This document shows positions 3,853-10,096 of a DNA stretch of 64,000 nucleotides, in pieces. The notes under the pieces were generated by a model, which saw only the letters and a program-made list of their open reading frames with translations, was not told where the DNA came from and did no database searches. Each line of letters begins with the position of its first letter. The stretch's first letter is position 1. Source of the stretch: Escherichia coli (lineage in GTDB: Bacteria > Pseudomonadota > Gammaproteobacteria > Enterobacterales > Enterobacteriaceae); assembly GCF_003334765.1 (NCBI RefSeq), contig NZ_QOWT01000022.1. One strand, written 5' to 3'. Made by a program: the position numbers and the translations under genes.

Positions 3853-4659
3853 ATGAGTGTTATGAATCCAATAAGTTCTAATATATTTAATGCTGAATTT
3901 TTAAACACCCCGGCAGCGGCACTTGCCGCATGGATTTCCATTATTGGAGCTGTTATAACTTTGGTGACGATAGTTATAAGAGCACTATTCAAATATAGAA
4001 AATCTCATGATGTAATTTTGAAAAAATCAGGAATACCTGCGTTTATATTGAATTTTTTTCTTATACGAATATCATTAAAAAGGCTGCCTACTATCACATG
4101 GGCTGAAAAATCAATCACGGTTCTCTTTTCACTTCTTTTTTTGTGTGCAATTTATATTTTTGGTCCAGTTTTCATCCAAGCCATTAGAACCCCACCAAAT
4201 AGCACATTGCTTTATTGGATAAAATCCGGTGAATCATTTTATATGTCAAAAAAACTGGCGACTGCAGCTACAATATTAACCACTCCTGATTGGGAAATAT
4301 CAAAGGATGATTGCGAAGAGTCATCCTCTGCCAGTACAGAGAAGTACAAATCATTAACTATCGAACATAAAGAAATTCTTTGTAAACTACTAACCACTGA
4401 TGAAGGGAATGCTTACATTGATGAAGAAGTCAAGAATTTCGTTAAAGACAAATTCTTTATCTATTCCTTTGCCCCAACAACCATATTTATTCTATTATGG
4501 ATTTCTTTGGGTTTTATACTGACCATTCACTATTCTAAAAAAGTTAGGAAATATATTCTGACTGAACAAAAAAATGCAATTCATTGGGCATATGGTGAAT
4601 TCAAGACAGAAGGAATCTATTCAATATATCAAGAGTTAGAACGTAAGACTCACCATTAA
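3853..4659 (+). CDS. Hypothetical multi-pass membrane protein (268 aa), an AT-rich moron in the S/V (P2 orf30) locus.
   Basis: RBS AGGTGG lies 5 nt before the ATG. Hydrophobic segments are AALAAWISIIGAVITLVTIVI, ITVLFSLLFLCAIYIFGPVFIQAI and TTIFILLWISLGFILTI. It is on the opposite strand to the tail operon and its composition is clearly AT-rich compared with the flanks. I recognise no homology. Confidence 0.6.
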   Translation: MSVMNPISSNIFNAEFLNTPAAALAAWISIIGAVITLVTIVIRALFKYRKSHDVILKKSGIPAFILNFFLIRISLKRLPTITWAEKSITVLFSLLFLCAIYIFGPVFIQAIRTPPNSTLLYWIKSGESFYMSKKLATAATILTTPDWEISKDDCEESSSASTEKYKSLTIEHKEILCKLLTTDEGNAYIDEEVKNFVKDKFFIYSFAPTTIFILLWISLGFILTIHYSKKVRKYILTEQKNAIHWAYGEFKTEGIYSIYQELERKTHH

Positions 4660-5047
4660 GACCCAACAAACGACGCTCTGCGTAACGCACTTCCGGTCCT
4701 TTGCGGCTGACGCGATCGCGCAGGCCATAATGGTGAACGCGGGCAATGCGCTGCACCTTACCTTCAAACTGCACGCTGGCAGAATCGGCGCTGGCGGCAG
4801 TTTTCAGGTATTTGGTGGTGCGCAGCTTTGCAAACATCTGACGTTTGATGCGGCCTTTTTTACTGCGCGCCGTGACCTTGCGCGGTTCATAACTGCTGCC
4901 ATCTGGATTGCGCTGCATCCTGATATTCTGCTGCTGTGTCCGGCGCAGTTCCTGCGCCAGCTGGCGCATCATGCGGCTTCTTGCGACTGGTTCCAGATTC
5001 GCCAGTAAGGCACTAAGCCAGTCGTCCACCTTCTGCAGTTCAGCCAC
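4601..5047 (-). CDS. S: Tail completion / virion morphogenesis protein S (P2 gpS-like).
   Basis: 148 aa with ...NIRMQRNPDGSSYEPRKV...KKGRIKRQMFAKL...HHYGLRD..., colinear with remembered gpS. The last ~17 codons lie in the AT-rich insert and overlap the convergent ORF 3853-4659. Confidence 0.85.
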   Translation of the reverse strand: MAELQKVDDWLSALLANLEPVARSRMMRQLAQELRRTQQQNIRMQRNPDGSSYEPRKVTARSKKGRIKRQMFAKLRTTKYLKTAASADSASVQFEGKVQRIARVHHYGLRDRVSRKGPEVRYAERRLLGLNGESYVLTLDILNRFLLS

Positions 5048-5357
5048 GTTTCACCGTCCACATTTCTTCAGGTTCATCGGGTTCTGCTACCGCTTCAACG
5101 CTCGACACACTGCCGTCAGTGCTGACCAGCACACGTTCCGTCAGTTGCAGGTTAAGGCTGATATCACAGACATCGTTGCGCAGAATATCCACCTCAAAGG
5201 TAAATAGTTTTTCCCGTAACGCCGGGTTATTGATGGCATCGGGCTGGTTATCCCGCAGCCACAGCAAAACCGGGGCCATCAGCAGATTCTGGTCGCCGCT
5301 GAAATCCTCAATCACCACGTTCAGGGTGTAACCACGCAGCCCTACGAGTTCACTAAA
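5040..5357 (-). pseudogene. R: 5'-truncated tail completion gene R (P2 gpR-like). The N-terminal ~40 codons are deleted.
   Basis: Residues ...GYTLNVVIEDFSGDQNLLMAPVLLWLRDNQPD...ISLNLQLTERVLV match the central and C-terminal part of gpR. The upstream part of the 152-aa ORF (5358-5498) is merely the antisense of the Q fragment. Confidence 0.7.
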
Positions 5358-5906: not shown

Positions 5907-5907
5907 T

Positions 5908-5934
5908 AAAGTAGGGCAAATAATGCCCTACTTT
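5908..5934. terminator. Perfect 11-bp stem hairpin between the convergent 'Q and 285-aa genes.
   Basis: AAAGTAGGGCA-aataa-TGCCCTACTTT. It has A/T-rich flanks on both sides and overlaps the stop codon (5928-5930) of the minus-strand gene. Confidence 0.55.
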
Positions 5935-6785
5935 AACCAAATATTATAATCCAATCTTCCTACGTATCTTGAAAAAACAGCCAGAGCAATTGCTTGCCCT
6001 ACACTTGTTAATTCAATTCCTTGATAGTTGCTCTTTGAAAATTTTTCTAAAAATGCAGACACATGAGGGGCAACTAACTTAAGATTTGAAATATATGCAC
6101 TCTTATCTTTTATATCAGTCGGATATTTACTCATAAAATAGTCTTCAACATCCATCCCTAAAAAAGTATTCCATGAACAAGCCCCTGCATATTGAATGTG
6201 ATATATCTGGGCTTGAGACAAATTAAACCCATTAGTATACATTGATTCAAAGTTTCTAAAATTGTGCTCCAACAAATCCAATCGAACACCATTAACAGGG
6301 TCTTTGATCTCAACATTCTTGAGAAGAAAAACTATCGTTATAAGTGATATTTGTTGCTGTGTTAACTTGGGAACGACGGTAACTGCCTCCGTTAAAACTA
6401 TATCTCTAAAATCGTCATTGTTATTGGAGACTCGTTCAACTAACAACTGAGAAAGCACATCCATATTAGCTTTCTTTCCCTTCCTGGCTGATGACTTTAA
6501 TGCCTCAGTCAATGTAGCCTGAACGTCCGGATCGCAAAATTTATCAATAATCAATCTATCAACGTTTTTTGTTAAATCCGAAACGACACGCTCTTCAAAA
6601 TCTTTTGCATTCTCTTGAGCTGCAGCATAAGCAACATCTTTCAATTTTGGAAACTGATTTTCGAAGAGAATGTTGAATAGTTCTCTAACCTCGGAAAACG
6701 ACATCCCTGAAACATTTACATTATTTCCAGCTTGAATTGCATACGAATTATTACCTATTTGTTGCTTTTGCTTATCACTAAACAT
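5928..6785 (-). CDS. Hypothetical 285-aa protein (cargo locus between Q and cos), a candidate defence/Abi component.
   Basis: RBS GGAGGA lies 7 nt before the ATG at 6785 and 9 nt after the stop of the upstream 81-aa ORF. It is AT-rich. The N-terminus is KQQIGNNSYAIQAGNNVNVSG and the rest looks all-helical. I recognise no catalytic motif. Confidence 0.75.
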   Translation of the reverse strand: MFSDKQKQQIGNNSYAIQAGNNVNVSGMSFSEVRELFNILFENQFPKLKDVAYAAAQENAKDFEERVVSDLTKNVDRLIIDKFCDPDVQATLTEALKSSARKGKKANMDVLSQLLVERVSNNNDDFRDIVLTEAVTVVPKLTQQQISLITIVFLLKNVEIKDPVNGVRLDLLEHNFRNFESMYTNGFNLSQAQIYHIQYAGACSWNTFLGMDVEDYFMSKYPTDIKDKSAYISNLKLVAPHVSAFLEKFSKSNYQGIELTSVGQAIALAVFSRYVGRLDYNIWLK

Positions 6786-6794
6786 ATATCCTCC

Positions 6795-7040
6795 TTATTT
6801 TTTATCACCTGTATTTATACAATCAATTTTAATATCACCTCTAGCCTGGACAGCAGTTGAATTATCACCAACTGATTGGCTCATAGAATTATATTTATTT
6901 TTTGTAGTGATAAGTAATCCAGCTAAAGCGCTAACTGCAGCCAAAAATGCAACAATAGAATCAAAACCAGGATCCATATAAAGCCATAATCCTGCAATCG
7001 ATGCCAGCATACATGTAATGACTATTGCAAAAATTTTCAT
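6795..7040 (-). CDS. Small 2-TM membrane protein (81 aa), first gene of a two-gene cargo operon.
   Basis: RBS AGGAGA precedes the ATG at 7040. There are two hydrophobic helices (IFAIVITCMLASIAGLWLY and IVAFLAAVSALAGLLI). The polar tail SQSVGDNSTAVQARGDIKID resembles the N-terminus of the downstream protein. Confidence 0.65.
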   Translation of the reverse strand: MKIFAIVITCMLASIAGLWLYMDPGFDSIVAFLAAVSALAGLLITTKNKYNSMSQSVGDNSTAVQARGDIKIDCINTGDKK

Positions 7041-7063
7041 AAATTCTCCTTCTAATGGAAGTG

Positions 7064-7092
7064 GTTATACCGAAAACAATTTCCTTTTACAA
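7064..7092 (-). promoter_or_regulatory. Candidate sigma70 promoter for the 81-aa/285-aa operon.
   Basis: The minus strand reads TTGTAA-N17-TATAAC, ending ~24 nt upstream of the ATG at 7040. Confidence 0.35.
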
Positions 7093-7107
7093 CCACGCAC
7101 AGCGCGC

Positions 7108-7127
7108 GCTCGTATCCCCGCCACGCC
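7108..7127. other. cos-like site (cohesive-end region of a 186/P2-type phage).
   Basis: The reverse complement reads GGCGTGGCGGGGATACGAGC. As I recall them, the 186 and P2 cohesive ends begin GGCGTGGCGGGGAAAG... and GGCGAGGCGGGGAAAG.... The site is a GC-rich island between two AT-rich loci, at the expected map position next to the end of Q. Confidence 0.5.
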
Positions 7128-7215
7128 TGCCCGCTTTGTGTAGTGGTTTTCATGCACCTGCATGACATAAGTAAAAGCCCGCCAGAACTGGCGGGACTGA
7201 GCAAAAACGATCCTT

Positions 7216-7245
7216 TTGCGATCATTCATTTTCATGCGCTATAGT
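7216..7245 (+). promoter_or_regulatory. Candidate sigma70 promoter for the 3-gene operon.
   Basis: TTGCGA-N18-TATAGT. It would give a ~95-nt leader before the AAGGAG RBS and the ATG at 7346. Confidence 0.3.
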
Positions 7246-7345
7246 CATGCAACAAACGCATACGAACCATATGGTTAGATTACTCATCAAGTCAGATGGA
7301 TTTTCAGGCAGATTGCCACAGCAATTGTAAAGGAGCGAGATTGAA

Positions 7346-8347
7346 ATGGGTGGAGAGACTTCGGCTATACAACGAGTCGCGGGTAAGATTTCTGATGATA
7401 TTTTCTCAGTGTTCAAATGGGATCGTGCCGCTAGAGCGGACATGAATTGGGATTGTTGCCAAGAGGCTCATTCCAAGAAAACACATCCAAGCGATGTTGT
7501 ATTTTTCTACATAGATCCATATGAGGAGGAAATGGTCTATCTCAACACAGACCTCAAAAGCTATGCAGAAGGTACTATTGGGAAAAAAATAGTCGAGGGA
7601 GCTTTAACATCGCTTGCTTTAGCTACCGAGTGTGCAAATGTCAGTGAAGAATGGCGATTGAAATATGTTCATGATGATTCTTTAGGTTATAACGTAAGAG
7701 GGTTATTATTCTTATATAACCATGATAATTTATATGATAAAGACTTCTATGAGAATATTACAAAAAAATTAGATCACTCATCTATAAATTGCCCTCCAAA
7801 CATCAAACTACATTTGCTTGACCCTTATAAAATATCAGATTTGATAAACATATCTTCTGACATAACTAAGTTAATTGGTTCAGGCAAACTTCCTCAACCT
7901 GATAAGTTCACATATTATTATCCAGATCTTTCCCTAACAAGAATAAAGCACCCTATTAATCAGACAACACCTGCAACAATTGAATTATTAACATCACCAT
8001 ACATTATAATAAAGCATGAGGCTTTCAGTTGGCTCAGGGATAAAAACCCTGAGGGATATGTTGTTTATTACAATCAACCGGGGGATTCAGTAGACGAATT
8101 CGTTTACTTCTTTGATATGTTATCAACTTATCAGATATTAACCGAAGGTAAACCAATCGTATTACGCCATTGTCACATTCACCCAAATGAAAATGCCATT
8201 CATCATTTTGAAAGAGCGAAAAAGAAATACAGCACAGACTGGCTCTTAGGCGAGGATGAAAGACTTTTTCTTAAAATTGACTTCGACAAGACAGACAAAA
8301 TTGTTGTTGAATATAATCTTGAACAAATCGGCATGGAGCAACGATAA
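7346..8347 (+). CDS. Hypothetical 333-aa protein with an N-terminal PD-(D/E)xK nuclease-like motif, gene 1 of a 3-gene cargo operon.
   Basis: RBS AAGGAG. The N-terminus has an acidic helix (E4, D17-D18), then HPSD50VVFFY, then VYLNTD69-L-K71, which is the canonical restriction-endonuclease-fold spacing. The gene is AT-rich. I do not recognise the C-terminal ~220 aa. Confidence 0.7.
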   Translation: MGGETSAIQRVAGKISDDIFSVFKWDRAARADMNWDCCQEAHSKKTHPSDVVFFYIDPYEEEMVYLNTDLKSYAEGTIGKKIVEGALTSLALATECANVSEEWRLKYVHDDSLGYNVRGLLFLYNHDNLYDKDFYENITKKLDHSSINCPPNIKLHLLDPYKISDLINISSDITKLIGSGKLPQPDKFTYYYPDLSLTRIKHPINQTTPATIELLTSPYIIIKHEAFSWLRDKNPEGYVVYYNQPGDSVDEFVYFFDMLSTYQILTEGKPIVLRHCHIHPNENAIHHFERAKKKYSTDWLLGEDERLFLKIDFDKTDKIVVEYNLEQIGMEQR

Positions 8348-9426
8348 TGGCTAAAAAACTATATTTCGCAACTGATAAAAATATTTATGATGCATTACAT
8401 CATAAAAGGATAACCGCTGCAAAGTTGCATGAATTATTGTTGAATCGAGGTGTGTTTTTATCACCAGAACTCGACAAGGAAATACTAATCGAGGAAATAT
8501 CCAAACTTCCTCACGGATTTAATGAATTAGAACACATAAAAAAACTGGTCAAAACATATGACCCAAGGGAAAGCACTACTAGTGTGAGCTTCCAAACCTC
8601 AACAAATCAGGCCGAATTAAAAAGTGCTGCTGAAGCACTAAAAAAAACATGCTCCCCTAGTAAAGGTCAAAGCCTGAATATTGTAGCTAAAAAAGATGGC
8701 TCGCTTACAGTAGAATACAAATATGAAGAAATAGACCTGTCTAAAACTGCATTACGTCAGATCGACAAGCGGAATGTTATAATAGAACTTCGCCCTGGAG
8801 CTGACAAAGTTGAAGTACGTATGCCTCAAAACCCCGAGGCAAAAAAAGTTATTGAGAGCTTGCAAAACGAGCTATCTAAAATCAAGTCCGAACCTATCGA
8901 GCGCTTCGAAATATCATTACTAGCAATAACTGATCCTACATTGCGAAGTCAGTTTTTTCAGGAATTAATGAATGGTCTACGCGGTTATGAGACTGATGAC
9001 GTAACAAAAGTCGAATTAAATCGCAGTACTGATGCTAGTGAGGATGAAGACAAGGAAGAAACTATTGATACCGGATTTGTTAAGAAAGCCGTCCTTAATG
9101 GTGAAGGGGTAAATAGTTCAGCTATATTTTCTCAACTACATGAGAAAGGTTATTATATCGGGCGTATTGCATGGTCTTCAAAGCCGACAAGTGGAATTGG
9201 AGACAGAATCAACGTCGAAGCATTTTTCAAAGACTCAGAAAAATGCTGTGACTTTGCCTATCAAATTAAAGGTATAAACAATCAAAAAGAAGACGGTTTC
9301 AATGTAACCATTCGCGCGGCAACGGCACAAGAGAAAAAACATATTAGTGAATTAATTGAGTCCGCCGCTGAAAATGCCTATAATATAATAATAGGATCAG
9401 AGGTGAACGAAGATGAAAAAGGTTAA
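8347..9426 (+). CDS. Hypothetical 359-aa protein, gene 2 of the 3-gene cargo operon.
   Basis: The start overlaps the gene-1 stop (TAATG). It contains an acidic linker, DASEDEDKEE. I recognise no motif. Confidence 0.7.
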   Translation: MAKKLYFATDKNIYDALHHKRITAAKLHELLLNRGVFLSPELDKEILIEEISKLPHGFNELEHIKKLVKTYDPRESTTSVSFQTSTNQAELKSAAEALKKTCSPSKGQSLNIVAKKDGSLTVEYKYEEIDLSKTALRQIDKRNVIIELRPGADKVEVRMPQNPEAKKVIESLQNELSKIKSEPIERFEISLLAITDPTLRSQFFQELMNGLRGYETDDVTKVELNRSTDASEDEDKEETIDTGFVKKAVLNGEGVNSSAIFSQLHEKGYYIGRIAWSSKPTSGIGDRINVEAFFKDSEKCCDFAYQIKGINNQKEDGFNVTIRAATAQEKKHISELIESAAENAYNIIIGSEVNEDEKG

Positions 9427-10096
9427 ATGGCTTAAGTTAAACATACGGCTTGAGTTTGAAACAGCCGTTAGACGTCTTTCTCTTGATTCTTTTACAGAGG
9501 ATAAAGGGAAAGGGTTCATTTTTGATAAAATACGCCATGATTTTGCAAATGGTCGCTTTGTCGAGCGTATTGTTTATCATGATAAAATATTAAGCTTTGA
9601 CGGAAGCGAAACTACCGTTGAAAGAATCGAATATCGCACCACAAATTTTAGCGTGGCTTTAGACTCTCTTCCTGTAATGCAGATTACTAACCCACCCAGA
9701 ACTTTAAAGCCTTTTTCGCAGGCTTTGGTAAAAAATCTTGGCTTAGGTGTTAGTTTGGAAGAAATTGACATAAACCCTATAGACTGGCTTAATGAAATAT
9801 CTTCAAGTGTAAATATCAATTTAACACAACTTGATATTTCAAGGGTTAGAGTTTCTGATTACGCCACAGCTAAAATGCAAATAATTGGCAGCAATGATCT
9901 TAGGAAGTATTATAAAGAAGAATTAGAGGGTAAAAAAATAAGAATTGACAGGCTTGTTTGCTCTGTTAATTCATTAGAATATTCCGGTAAGCTCAAGATC
10001 ACCAATAGCGGCCTTGCTTATATTGATGTTAGAAATGAGAATGAGTTTACGAAAATCGTTTTTGATACGTTAAAAAAAGTCACCCTTCAATCATAG
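9413..10096 (+). CDS. Hypothetical 227-aa protein, gene 3 of the 3-gene cargo operon.
   Basis: The start lies 14 nt inside the end of gene 2. The sequence looks beta-rich. I recognise no motif. Confidence 0.65.
   Translation: MKKVKWLKLNIRLEFETAVRRLSLDSFTEDKGKGFIFDKIRHDFANGRFVERIVYHDKILSFDGSETTVERIEYRTTNFSVALDSLPVMQITNPPRTLKPFSQALVKNLGLGVSLEEIDINPIDWLNEISSSVNINLTQLDISRVRVSDYATAKMQIIGSNDLRKYYKEELEGKKIRIDRLVCSVNSLEYSGKLKITNSGLAYIDVRNENEFTKIVFDTLKKVTLQS

Follow-up and report, generated by a model that had tools for sequence, protein, structure and literature searches.

A 64,000-nucleotide (nt) stretch of Escherichia coli contig NZ_QOWT01000022.1 (assembly GCF_003334765.1), referred to here as the window, carries a defective P2-like prophage with an AT-rich operon on the minus strand, located between the end of the portal gene Q and the cos region. 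The operon is composed of a gene for a membrane protein of 81 amino acids (aa) at 6795-7040 followed by a gene for a 285-aa protein at 5928-6785, and the C-terminal tail of the small protein and the N-terminus of the large protein carry the same motif of 20 residues. We propose that the small protein acts as an effector, with a transmembrane (TM) hairpin and a motif-bearing cytoplasmic tail, and that the large protein acts as a sensor or regulator. A preliminary description of the locus, made from the letters alone, had placed both open reading frames (ORFs) at these positions and had noted the two hydrophobic helices of the small protein and the AT-richness of the operon relative to Q and cos. 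All three observations were confirmed, with a GC content of 0.33-0.37 for the operon compared to 0.53-0.55 for P2 core genes.

The small protein matches PHROG 27656 at 1.9e-52. Two hydrophobic segments, at approximately aa 3-21 and 28-45 and each with a mean Kyte-Doolittle value above 2, correspond in the AlphaFold model to TM helices at aa 2-22 and 26-44 (6909-7037), which are joined by the acidic loop MDPGFDS. The hairpin was modeled with a pLDDT of 81-86 and the tail with low confidence. Lysine and arginine residues are found only outside the loop, with lysines flanking both ends, and both termini should therefore be cytoplasmic according to the positive-inside rule. The protein belongs to a family of at least 398 homologs of 74-114 aa, nearly all of 77-90 aa, which conserves W19 and the P-G-F-D-S loop and in which no Pfam domain was found. 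The window protein itself gave no significant Pfam or PADLOC match, the only hit in PADLOC-DB v2.0.0 being to a generic 2TM effector model at E = 0.017; there was no Bell profile among the models compared.

The large protein is a member of the uncharacterized LPO_1073/Vpar_1526 family (NCBIfam NF045477, PF28206, PHROG 19542). The NF045477 match has an E-value of 3e-72 and a score of 243.4 bits against a cut-off of 45, and it aligns residues 27-284 with model positions 1-257, which delimits an all-alpha globular Vpar_1526 domain (5934-6707). PF28206 is precomputed on all homologs, and the LPO_1073/Vpar_1526 name is also used by RefSeq. The preliminary description had named no family for this protein; a family name does exist, although no function is recorded for it. 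Searches of PADLOC, Pfam, NCBIfam and PHROGs returned no functional annotation beyond family names for both proteins. AlphaFold modeled the large protein as a single all-alpha domain (pLDDT 85.8) preceded by residues 1-24 at a pLDDT below 50. No solved structural relative and no known fold relative of the Vpar_1526 domain were found, and Pfam and NCBIfam scans detected no NTPase or repeat domain. When 1.84 billion representative proteins were searched with a profile, 2,290 clusters, defined at 50% identity, matched with E-values of 0.001 or lower and 1,597 with 1e-10 or lower, and an isolate-phage database yielded no close homolog. Residues 119-167 (6285-6431) showed a weak, sub-threshold likeness to phage T4 Cef in two libraries (PF24050, E 0.007; PHROG 1354, E 0.0012).

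The TAA stop codon of the small gene is directly followed by GGAGGA-TAT-ATG, so that the GGAGGA at 6789-6794 provides a Shine-Dalgarno sequence for the large gene within an intergenic gap of 9 nt. This arrangement implies translational coupling of the two genes, whose homologs elsewhere are separated by 1-13 nt or overlap. The small gene has its own Shine-Dalgarno sequence, AGGAG at 7046-7050, placed 5 nt before its ATG. Read-through of the TAA was considered, with the two ORFs in the same frame and only the TAA and 9 nt apart, and was dropped because the frame relation is not conserved elsewhere. A terminator scan identified a perfect hairpin of 12 bp with a 5-nt loop (5907-5935) between the convergent portal and large genes, starting directly after the portal stop (5906) and overlapping the stop codon of the large gene (5928-5930), and it is likely a two-way terminator. 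The ribosome-binding site, the 9-nt gap and a hairpin shared with the end of the Q fragment had all been described before and agree with the sequence, the hairpin being measured here as 12 pairs. The putative sigma-70 promoter TTGTAA-N17-TATAAC at 7064-7092, which abuts the cos homology starting at ~7090, held up less well. The motif is present as described; however, it is weak, with a -10 element lacking the final T, it was not listed by a consensus scan, and promoter-like sites in the region were not above chance (5 found, 5.6 expected).

A motif shared by the two proteins

The effector-side copy of the motif, MSQSVGDNSTAVQARGDIKI, covers aa 53-72 of the small protein (6825-6884), and the sensor-side copy, QKQQIGNNSYAIQAGNNVNV, covers aa 6-25 of the large protein (6711-6770). 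The two align without gaps and in the same register over all 20 residues, with 7 identical positions and 5 more conservative ones. The underlying coding DNA is identical at only 35 of 60 positions (58%), so that the two copies are not the product of a recent duplication. When a profile of the small-protein family was compared with all six frames of the 64-kb window, it gave just two matches, one to the small ORF (4e-25) and one to the N-terminal end of the large ORF (2e-5).

The motif was present in all 123 small-family homologs examined, with the effector-side consensus Q-x-Q-x-V-x-x-x-S-x-G-[IV]-Q-A-G-x-[DN]-V-x-I, and the sensor side has alanine in place of the first glycine. At the sensor N-terminus, Q8, A16, Q18, A19 and G20 are invariant or nearly so. 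A strict form of the motif was found in 167 of 249 full-length relatives of the large protein, with looser variants in most of the remainder listed, and A-phi-Q-A-G, where phi is a hydrophobic residue, in 137 of the 249. In composition the motif is high in glycine (2.7-fold), glutamine (3.1-fold) and valine (1.5-fold), with asparagine at 1.1-fold, and low in leucine (0.17), proline (0.02) and lysine (0.43). Both tails are of low confidence or unstructured in the AlphaFold monomer models.

The preliminary description had noted that the two proteins share this motif and had asked whether they occur together in other genomes and which proteins carry the motif. Full-length homologs of the large protein at 34-43% identity were located at 20 genome loci from at least six phyla, spanning Beta-, Gamma- and Alphaproteobacteria, Brocadiales, Chlorobi, Acidobacteria, Bacteroidota and Desulfobacterota. 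A motif-bearing small gene was found upstream at every one of the 20 loci, intact in 19 and frameshifted in one. In the proteins of ~80 aa encoded by these upstream genes, two hydrophobic helices and a W...P-G-F-D-S turn precede basic residues and then the motif. Pairing was also observed at five of six diverged viral loci (L043-L047), the contig of the sixth (L048) starting at the large gene. Additionally, the motif alone was back-translated into a DNA pattern and run on viral contigs and metagenomes. Six loci were identified in the viral contigs, all encoding membrane-helix proteins that end in the motif, and 74 of 80 examined metagenome loci belonged to the small-protein family, the other six being spurious frames in high-GC DNA. 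A Vpar_1526 gene lay downstream at 61 of the 80 metagenome loci, and 7 ran off the contig. Overall, ~100 loci, drawn from many phyla and from several types of phage, encode a membrane protein of ~60-86 aa with the motif at its end, and the gene that follows opens with this stretch of 20 residues, again in register.

Tails of the same pair are somewhat more similar than those of different pairs. In 19 gene pairs the small and large copies align gap-free at ~50% identity over 20 residues, and cognate tails scored higher than non-cognate ones (BLOSUM 51.0 vs 44.8; permutation p=0.0003). In 75 unique pairs the scores were 45.3 vs 40.9, a difference reached in 0 of 20,000 permutations and persisting when permutation was restricted to motif classes; both sets of statistics ignore shared ancestry. 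Position 16 of the motif, arginine or glycine, covaries most between cognate tails. One rival explanation is that the likeness of the tails is fortuitous or that the small ORF is not a gene. Only the short length of the ORF and of the motif speaks for it, whereas the small ORF is conserved in hundreds of sequences, the motif never fails among the 123 homologs, and the profile finds the large protein at E = 2e-5 within the window, so that we regard this explanation as effectively refuted. The shared motif noted at the outset is real, and it is conserved.

Departures from the simple pair were also found. At two loci one small gene is followed by two tandem Vpar_1526 paralogs, each with an N-terminal motif (L015, 3771-5846; L047, 1237-3370, the same as L011), which could mean that several sensors feed one effector. 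Two small genes with the motif are orphans with no Vpar_1526 gene downstream (L027, 8001-8240; L056, 4273-4767). The orphan in L027, which is probably a remnant, adjoins an SLFN/AlbA_2 gene whose protein has no motif, and the orphan in L056 lies upstream of an apparent thymidylate synthase (ThyX) gene, as judged by eye from its N-terminal sequence.

Fusions and exchanged parts

Several relatives hold the two parts on one chain. Two metagenome contigs (L079, L116) encode, in a single frame, two TM helices, the motif, a linker of 12-15 residues, a second motif and a Vpar_1526 domain. Among the top 150 representatives of the large-protein family, five proteins (P0341, P0348, P0378, P0307 and P0355) are fusions of one TM helix, the motif and a Vpar_1526 domain. 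Three further relatives of ~466 aa (P0338, P0369 and P0367) instead begin with an HNH nuclease, after which come a degenerate motif and the Vpar_1526 domain. Their HNH domain matches PDB 9om4 (1.6e-8) and the Cap5 SAVED-HNH chains 7rwm and 7rwk, and in PADLOC it matches PDC-M68A (6e-28), Shedu SduA (5.5e-17) and CBASS endonuclease effectors (4.8e-16).

The partner of the membrane protein varies as well. At two loci (L102, 5008-6666; L104, 406-2064) a 57-aa one-helix protein (ENKDWLFSG...) that ends in a motif variant is followed by a 492-aa partner with an N-terminal motif, a coiled coil and TPR repeats (TPR_12 at 2.7e-32). The pair in L102 adjoins a P2 gpA-type gene, and the 57-aa module weakly matches the N-terminus of the PADLOC candidate PDC-M43A (E 3e-4). 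In a low-GC subfamily, Vpar_1526 proteins of ~350 aa pair with a 63-aa one-helix protein whose tail, KQSQKLGNQSTGIQVGGDISI, nearly copies that of its partner, NKQSQKVGDNSTSIQAGGNVKI.

The fusions show that both proteins act together. The N-terminal element varies (two TM helices, one TM helix or HNH, split or fused), as does the partner (Vpar_1526 or TPR), with the motif as the constant joint between them, and an HNH nuclease in the place of the membrane part fits a swappable effector placed before a constant sensor. The earlier suggestions of a motif that connects a membrane-bound part with a soluble helical one, and of a layout that combines a sensor with a membrane effector, are thus supported by the conserved pairing, the fusions and the HNH swaps.

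Two other readings of the same architecture were weighed here. In the first, the tails form a stable beta-zipper that constitutively tethers the Vpar_1526 protein at the inner membrane, for example for superinfection exclusion, with no switch and no prion-like templating. Prophage-encoded membrane exclusion proteins are common, and fusions in which the TM helices, the motif and the domain share one chain indicate that function tolerates a lasting attachment to the membrane. In addition, the one paper located that mentions the family lists Vpar_1526 itself among the proteins of Veillonella parvula membrane fractions (PMC5491611). On the other hand, the HNH relatives have a nuclease at the position of the anchor, which fits a swappable effector better, the same motif serves an unrelated TPR partner, and its composition is that of self-stacking beta motifs. 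We consider a mere tether unlikely.

The second reading follows toxin-antitoxin logic, with the small protein as a self-assembling membrane toxin that is capped by the N-terminal motif of the large protein and freed when the large protein is lost or titrated during infection. The order of the genes and their tight translational coupling would suit a co-regulated toxin and its neutralizer, the shared motif would permit capping, and orphan small genes seem rare. However, such orphans do exist (L027, L056), the fusions hold both parts on a single chain, and one small gene with two sensor paralogs (L015, L047) is better explained by several sensors per effector, which makes the toxin-antitoxin arrangement quite improbable in our judgment. 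An effector and a sensor that are joined by the motif remain the interpretation that we carry forward.

Prophage context

The prophage is present in the window in reversed P2-like order. The tail and baseplate genes I, J, W and V, an AT-rich DUF6216 gene, S, a truncated R and a fragment of Q come first. The operon and the cos region lie next, and beyond them three genes on the opposite strand, small P2 ORFs and gene A, which serves replication. Compared to an intact prophage copy (L036, 5056-12113), a deletion of 7.06 kb with a junction at 5325-5332 and an 8-bp overlap has taken out the 5' portion of R together with the lysis genes and X, L, M, N, O and P, and it extends over the initial 450 nt of Q, consistent with the earlier reading of Q as a fragment. 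The prophage is defective and its hotspot cargo is intact. The L036 record (NZ_CP148585) is annotated as a 55.6-kb plasmid and contains the intact prophage together with chromosomal rcdA, ybjJ and ybjI, and it may be a mis-assigned replicon. In another E. coli record (L035, NZ_LT883142), an IS5-family element (4095-5357) is found at the expected place of Hp1, cos and most of the operon, of which no more than ~84 nt at the end of the large gene are left.

The known defense hotspot of P2 extends from gpA across cos to gpQ (PMC9122126, PMC13586616). A conserved P2-type cos region (~7090-7251) separates the operon from the Rst_3HP genes; more than 1,200 E. coli genomes without the operon have a match to this region, and the operon was found in 6 of 5,426 complete E. 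coli genomes. Positions 7109-7127 weakly resemble, with 4-5 mismatches, the 186 and P2 cohesive-end sequences. The cos region immediately precedes the small gene in four diverged P2-like phages. In P2-like phages of Salmonella and Pantoea and in another P2-like phage, the stretch at this place shares 79-88% identity with the cos region of the window, while the pairs of these phages are only ~42% identical to the window pair. Because these diverged pairs all lie directly downstream of a conserved cos region, the gap between cos and Q is a recurring site for the module. A placement of the Pantoea pair on the old/tin side of cos was rejected, as the alignment of the cos region puts it on the Q side, like the pair in the window. 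The preliminary description had located the operon on the Q side of cos and had considered it a separate insertion; the first point is borne out by the cos region directly upstream of the small gene and the second by the Salmonella and Pantoea P2-like phages, which carry the pair without the 3HP genes.

On the gpA side of cos, the window encodes Hp1, Hp2 and Hp3 (333, 359 and 227 aa; 7346-10096, plus strand), which are full-length matches to PADLOC Rst_3HP, a validated anti-phage system (Rousset et al. 2022), at 1e-157 to 1e-248. The PADLOC search that had been called for identified Rst_3HP separately and gave no significant match for the pair. A 268-aa DUF6216 membrane protein, for which no PADLOC match was found, is encoded between V and S on the opposite strand (3853-4659, plus strand; GC 0.33), and its gene is a second moron in this prophage.

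Beyond the window, the pair is the sole cargo between gpA and gpQ in Salmonella and Pantoea P2-like phages and a moron adjoining a TIR protein gene in a Mu-like prophage. Elsewhere it adjoins ParDE and Shedu SduA, outside prophages, or an integrase and a long uncharacterized ORF that by eye is GmrSD/DUF262-like, and in another phage type it lies beside terminase genes. On a Firmicute-type phage contig (L049) it is placed directly upstream of a holin-amidase lysis cassette. This last position, together with a pair near lysis genes in L048 and the holin-like size of the small protein, raises the alternative of an accessory to the phage life cycle, such as a holin-like or antiholin factor in lysis timing or a moron for host fitness, with no part in immunity. 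However, the pair of P2-like phages lies far from the lysis genes and within the defense hotspot, other pairs are found outside prophages beside Shedu and toxin-antitoxin genes, nearly all P2-like phages do without it, and the HNH variants would make no sense for lysis timing. We regard a role of this kind as very improbable.

Proposed mechanism and known systems

With modest confidence, we favor the interpretation that the operon is a self-contained two-gene cargo of the cos-proximal P2 hotspot, namely a phage-carried abortive-infection module in which a sensor signals to a membrane effector through co-assembly of their tails. We favor co-assembly because the layout matches that of HET-S/NWD2, BASS and Bab/Agp and because the composition and core of the motif fit. 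In the proposed sequence of events, the Vpar_1526 domain would sense a phage-dependent cue and self-associate, and the N-terminal motifs of the sensors would then stack into a beta-sheet, amyloid-like seed. The seed would recruit and order the matching motif on the membrane protein, and the clustered hairpins would breach the inner membrane so that the infection is aborted. The genes, their conserved pairing, the in-register motif, the fusions, the exchanged effectors and sensors and the prophage and defense-island surroundings are observed, and the anti-phage function, the direction of signaling, the cross-beta assembly and the membrane permeabilization are inferred.

A number of observations weigh against this interpretation. 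Table S5 of Rousset et al. 2022 lists exactly this locus, with both proteins as no more than 'hypothetical' cargo, and neither the supplement nor full-text searches pointed to a separate test of the pair. No functional study of LPO_1073, Vpar_1526 or the WP accessions was found in the literature, and PADLOC-DB v2.0.0 has no family for the large protein. The proposed sensor has no NTPase or other recognizable switch, and the Pfam RHIM model matched neither 19 effectors (E up to 10) nor the window proteins (E up to 1). The orphan small genes described above have no Vpar_1526 partner, and the statistics on cognate tails are uncorrected for shared ancestry. Fused forms retain the motif even though a covalent link would make a pure adaptor needless, and since they do so, the motif may also have a role in assembly itself.

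The allele in the window is a further point of this kind. The G-phi-Q-phi-G core is present in 122 of 123 effector homologs, in the form G-[IV]-Q-[AT]-G, and the sole exception is the window protein, in which A63 and R67 replace both near-invariant glycines (AVQAR instead of G[IV]QAG). The window sequence S-T-A-V-Q-A-R-G-D corresponds to S-I-G-V-Q-A-G-G-D in the Salmonella allele (P0122), and each of the two changes requires a single base. The same AVQAR allele also occurs in an otherwise intact prophage, so that it is not merely a product of decay in the deleted copy. The window effector may be weakened, or it may be altered or retuned in specificity.

We also raise, as a tentative possibility, that the module represents an undescribed RHIM/PP-like class of amyloid signaling that is carried by phages in unicellular bacteria. 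In such a class, a non-NLR sensor (Vpar_1526 or TPR) would template the tail of a one- or two-helix protein into a membrane-puncturing cross-beta assembly, and the split, fused and nuclease forms would be variants of one modular scheme. Fungi and animals are established to use prion-like signaling from an immune sensor to an effector of cell death. The bacterial case so far consists of one tested system, Bab/Agp, and of predictions that are said to apply only to multicellular species with NLRs. If the interpretation is true, the same wiring would exist in a far larger family (~2,290 clusters at 50% identity), in unicellular phyla and in several phage types, with a new sensor fold and an effector that is near the smallest imaginable. 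The split, fused, doubled-sensor and nuclease variants would then serve as natural controls for the transmission of a signal by a 20-residue tail. A testable role is thereby offered for a named family of unknown function and for an unexplained cargo of the P2 hotspot.

The nearest tested system is Bab/Agp from E. coli ECOR25, in which a shared BASS11 amyloid motif acts in abortive infection (Ibarlosa et al., 10.1101/2024.11.07.622273). Like the window pair, Bab and Agp are encoded by adjacent genes in an E. coli prophage defense hotspot, and a small membrane-acting effector with a C-terminal motif of ~20-25 aa is combined with a sensor that has the motif at its N-terminus. Agp also contains TPRs, and a relative of the window pair (L102/L104) couples the motif to a TPR protein. 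However, Bab is a Bell-like helical domain, whereas the window effector is a two-TM hairpin, and Agp has a TPR-GreA/B-C-PIN organization, whereas the 285-aa protein has no TPR, GreA/B or PIN match in Pfam. The cited Bab positions (I87-G88-S89-V90, Q92, D99 and N100) also do not fit the spacing of the window motif, in a comparison made by cited positions.

The BASS1-10 motifs are those of Bell/NLR pairs of genes (Dyrka et al. 2020, 10.1101/2020.01.06.895854). In the fungal HET-S/NWD2 pair, in BASS pairs and in Bab/Agp, the receptor motif turns cross-beta and templates the effector motif. The BASS pairs and HET-S/NWD2 resemble the window pair in having adjacent genes, a C-terminal motif on the effector and an N-terminal motif on the receptor. 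The BASS motifs are similar to those of the window family in length (~20-25 aa) and in being rich in G, Q, N and V and poor in P, L and K, and both 'all-in-one' and split architectures occur in the two groups; the tandem motifs of L079 and L116 recall the two pseudorepeats of HET-s. However, the BASS receptor is an NLR, and the window sensor, with no NTPase or repeat domain, is not. BASS pairs are reported to be restricted to multicellular bacteria (Actinobacteria, Cyanobacteria and similar groups) and to be rare in Proteobacteria and Firmicutes, whereas the Vpar_1526 family is found in unicellular Proteobacteria, in Firmicute-type phages and in many phyla. The fused forms of the window family also keep the motif, unlike BASS pairs. 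As for the RHIM/PP/BASS3 signature, G-phi-Q-phi-G, it is the core of the effector family, G-[IV]-Q-A-G flanked by S/N and D/N, while the sensor side (A-phi-Q-A-G) and the window allele (A-V-Q-A-R) differ from it.

Two other systems share single features with the module. The relatives P0338, P0369 and P0367 have a Cap5-type HNH domain N-terminal to the Vpar_1526 domain, which thus stands where Cap5 of CBASS has SAVED; this architecture is absent from the window. The Vpar_1526 domain has no relation to SAVED, and a cyclase partner is lacking. Rst_3HP occupies the same hotspot in the same strains and is listed together with the pair in Table S5, but its genes are located across cos on the other strand. 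An assignment of the pair to Rst_3HP was rejected, as Hp1-3 are other ORFs and the pair stands alone in Salmonella P2-like prophages. Although its sensor is not an NLR and it appears to be a member of neither Bab/Agp nor Rst_3HP, the module is, as judged by its design, most probably closest to the amyloid-signaling effector/receptor pairs.

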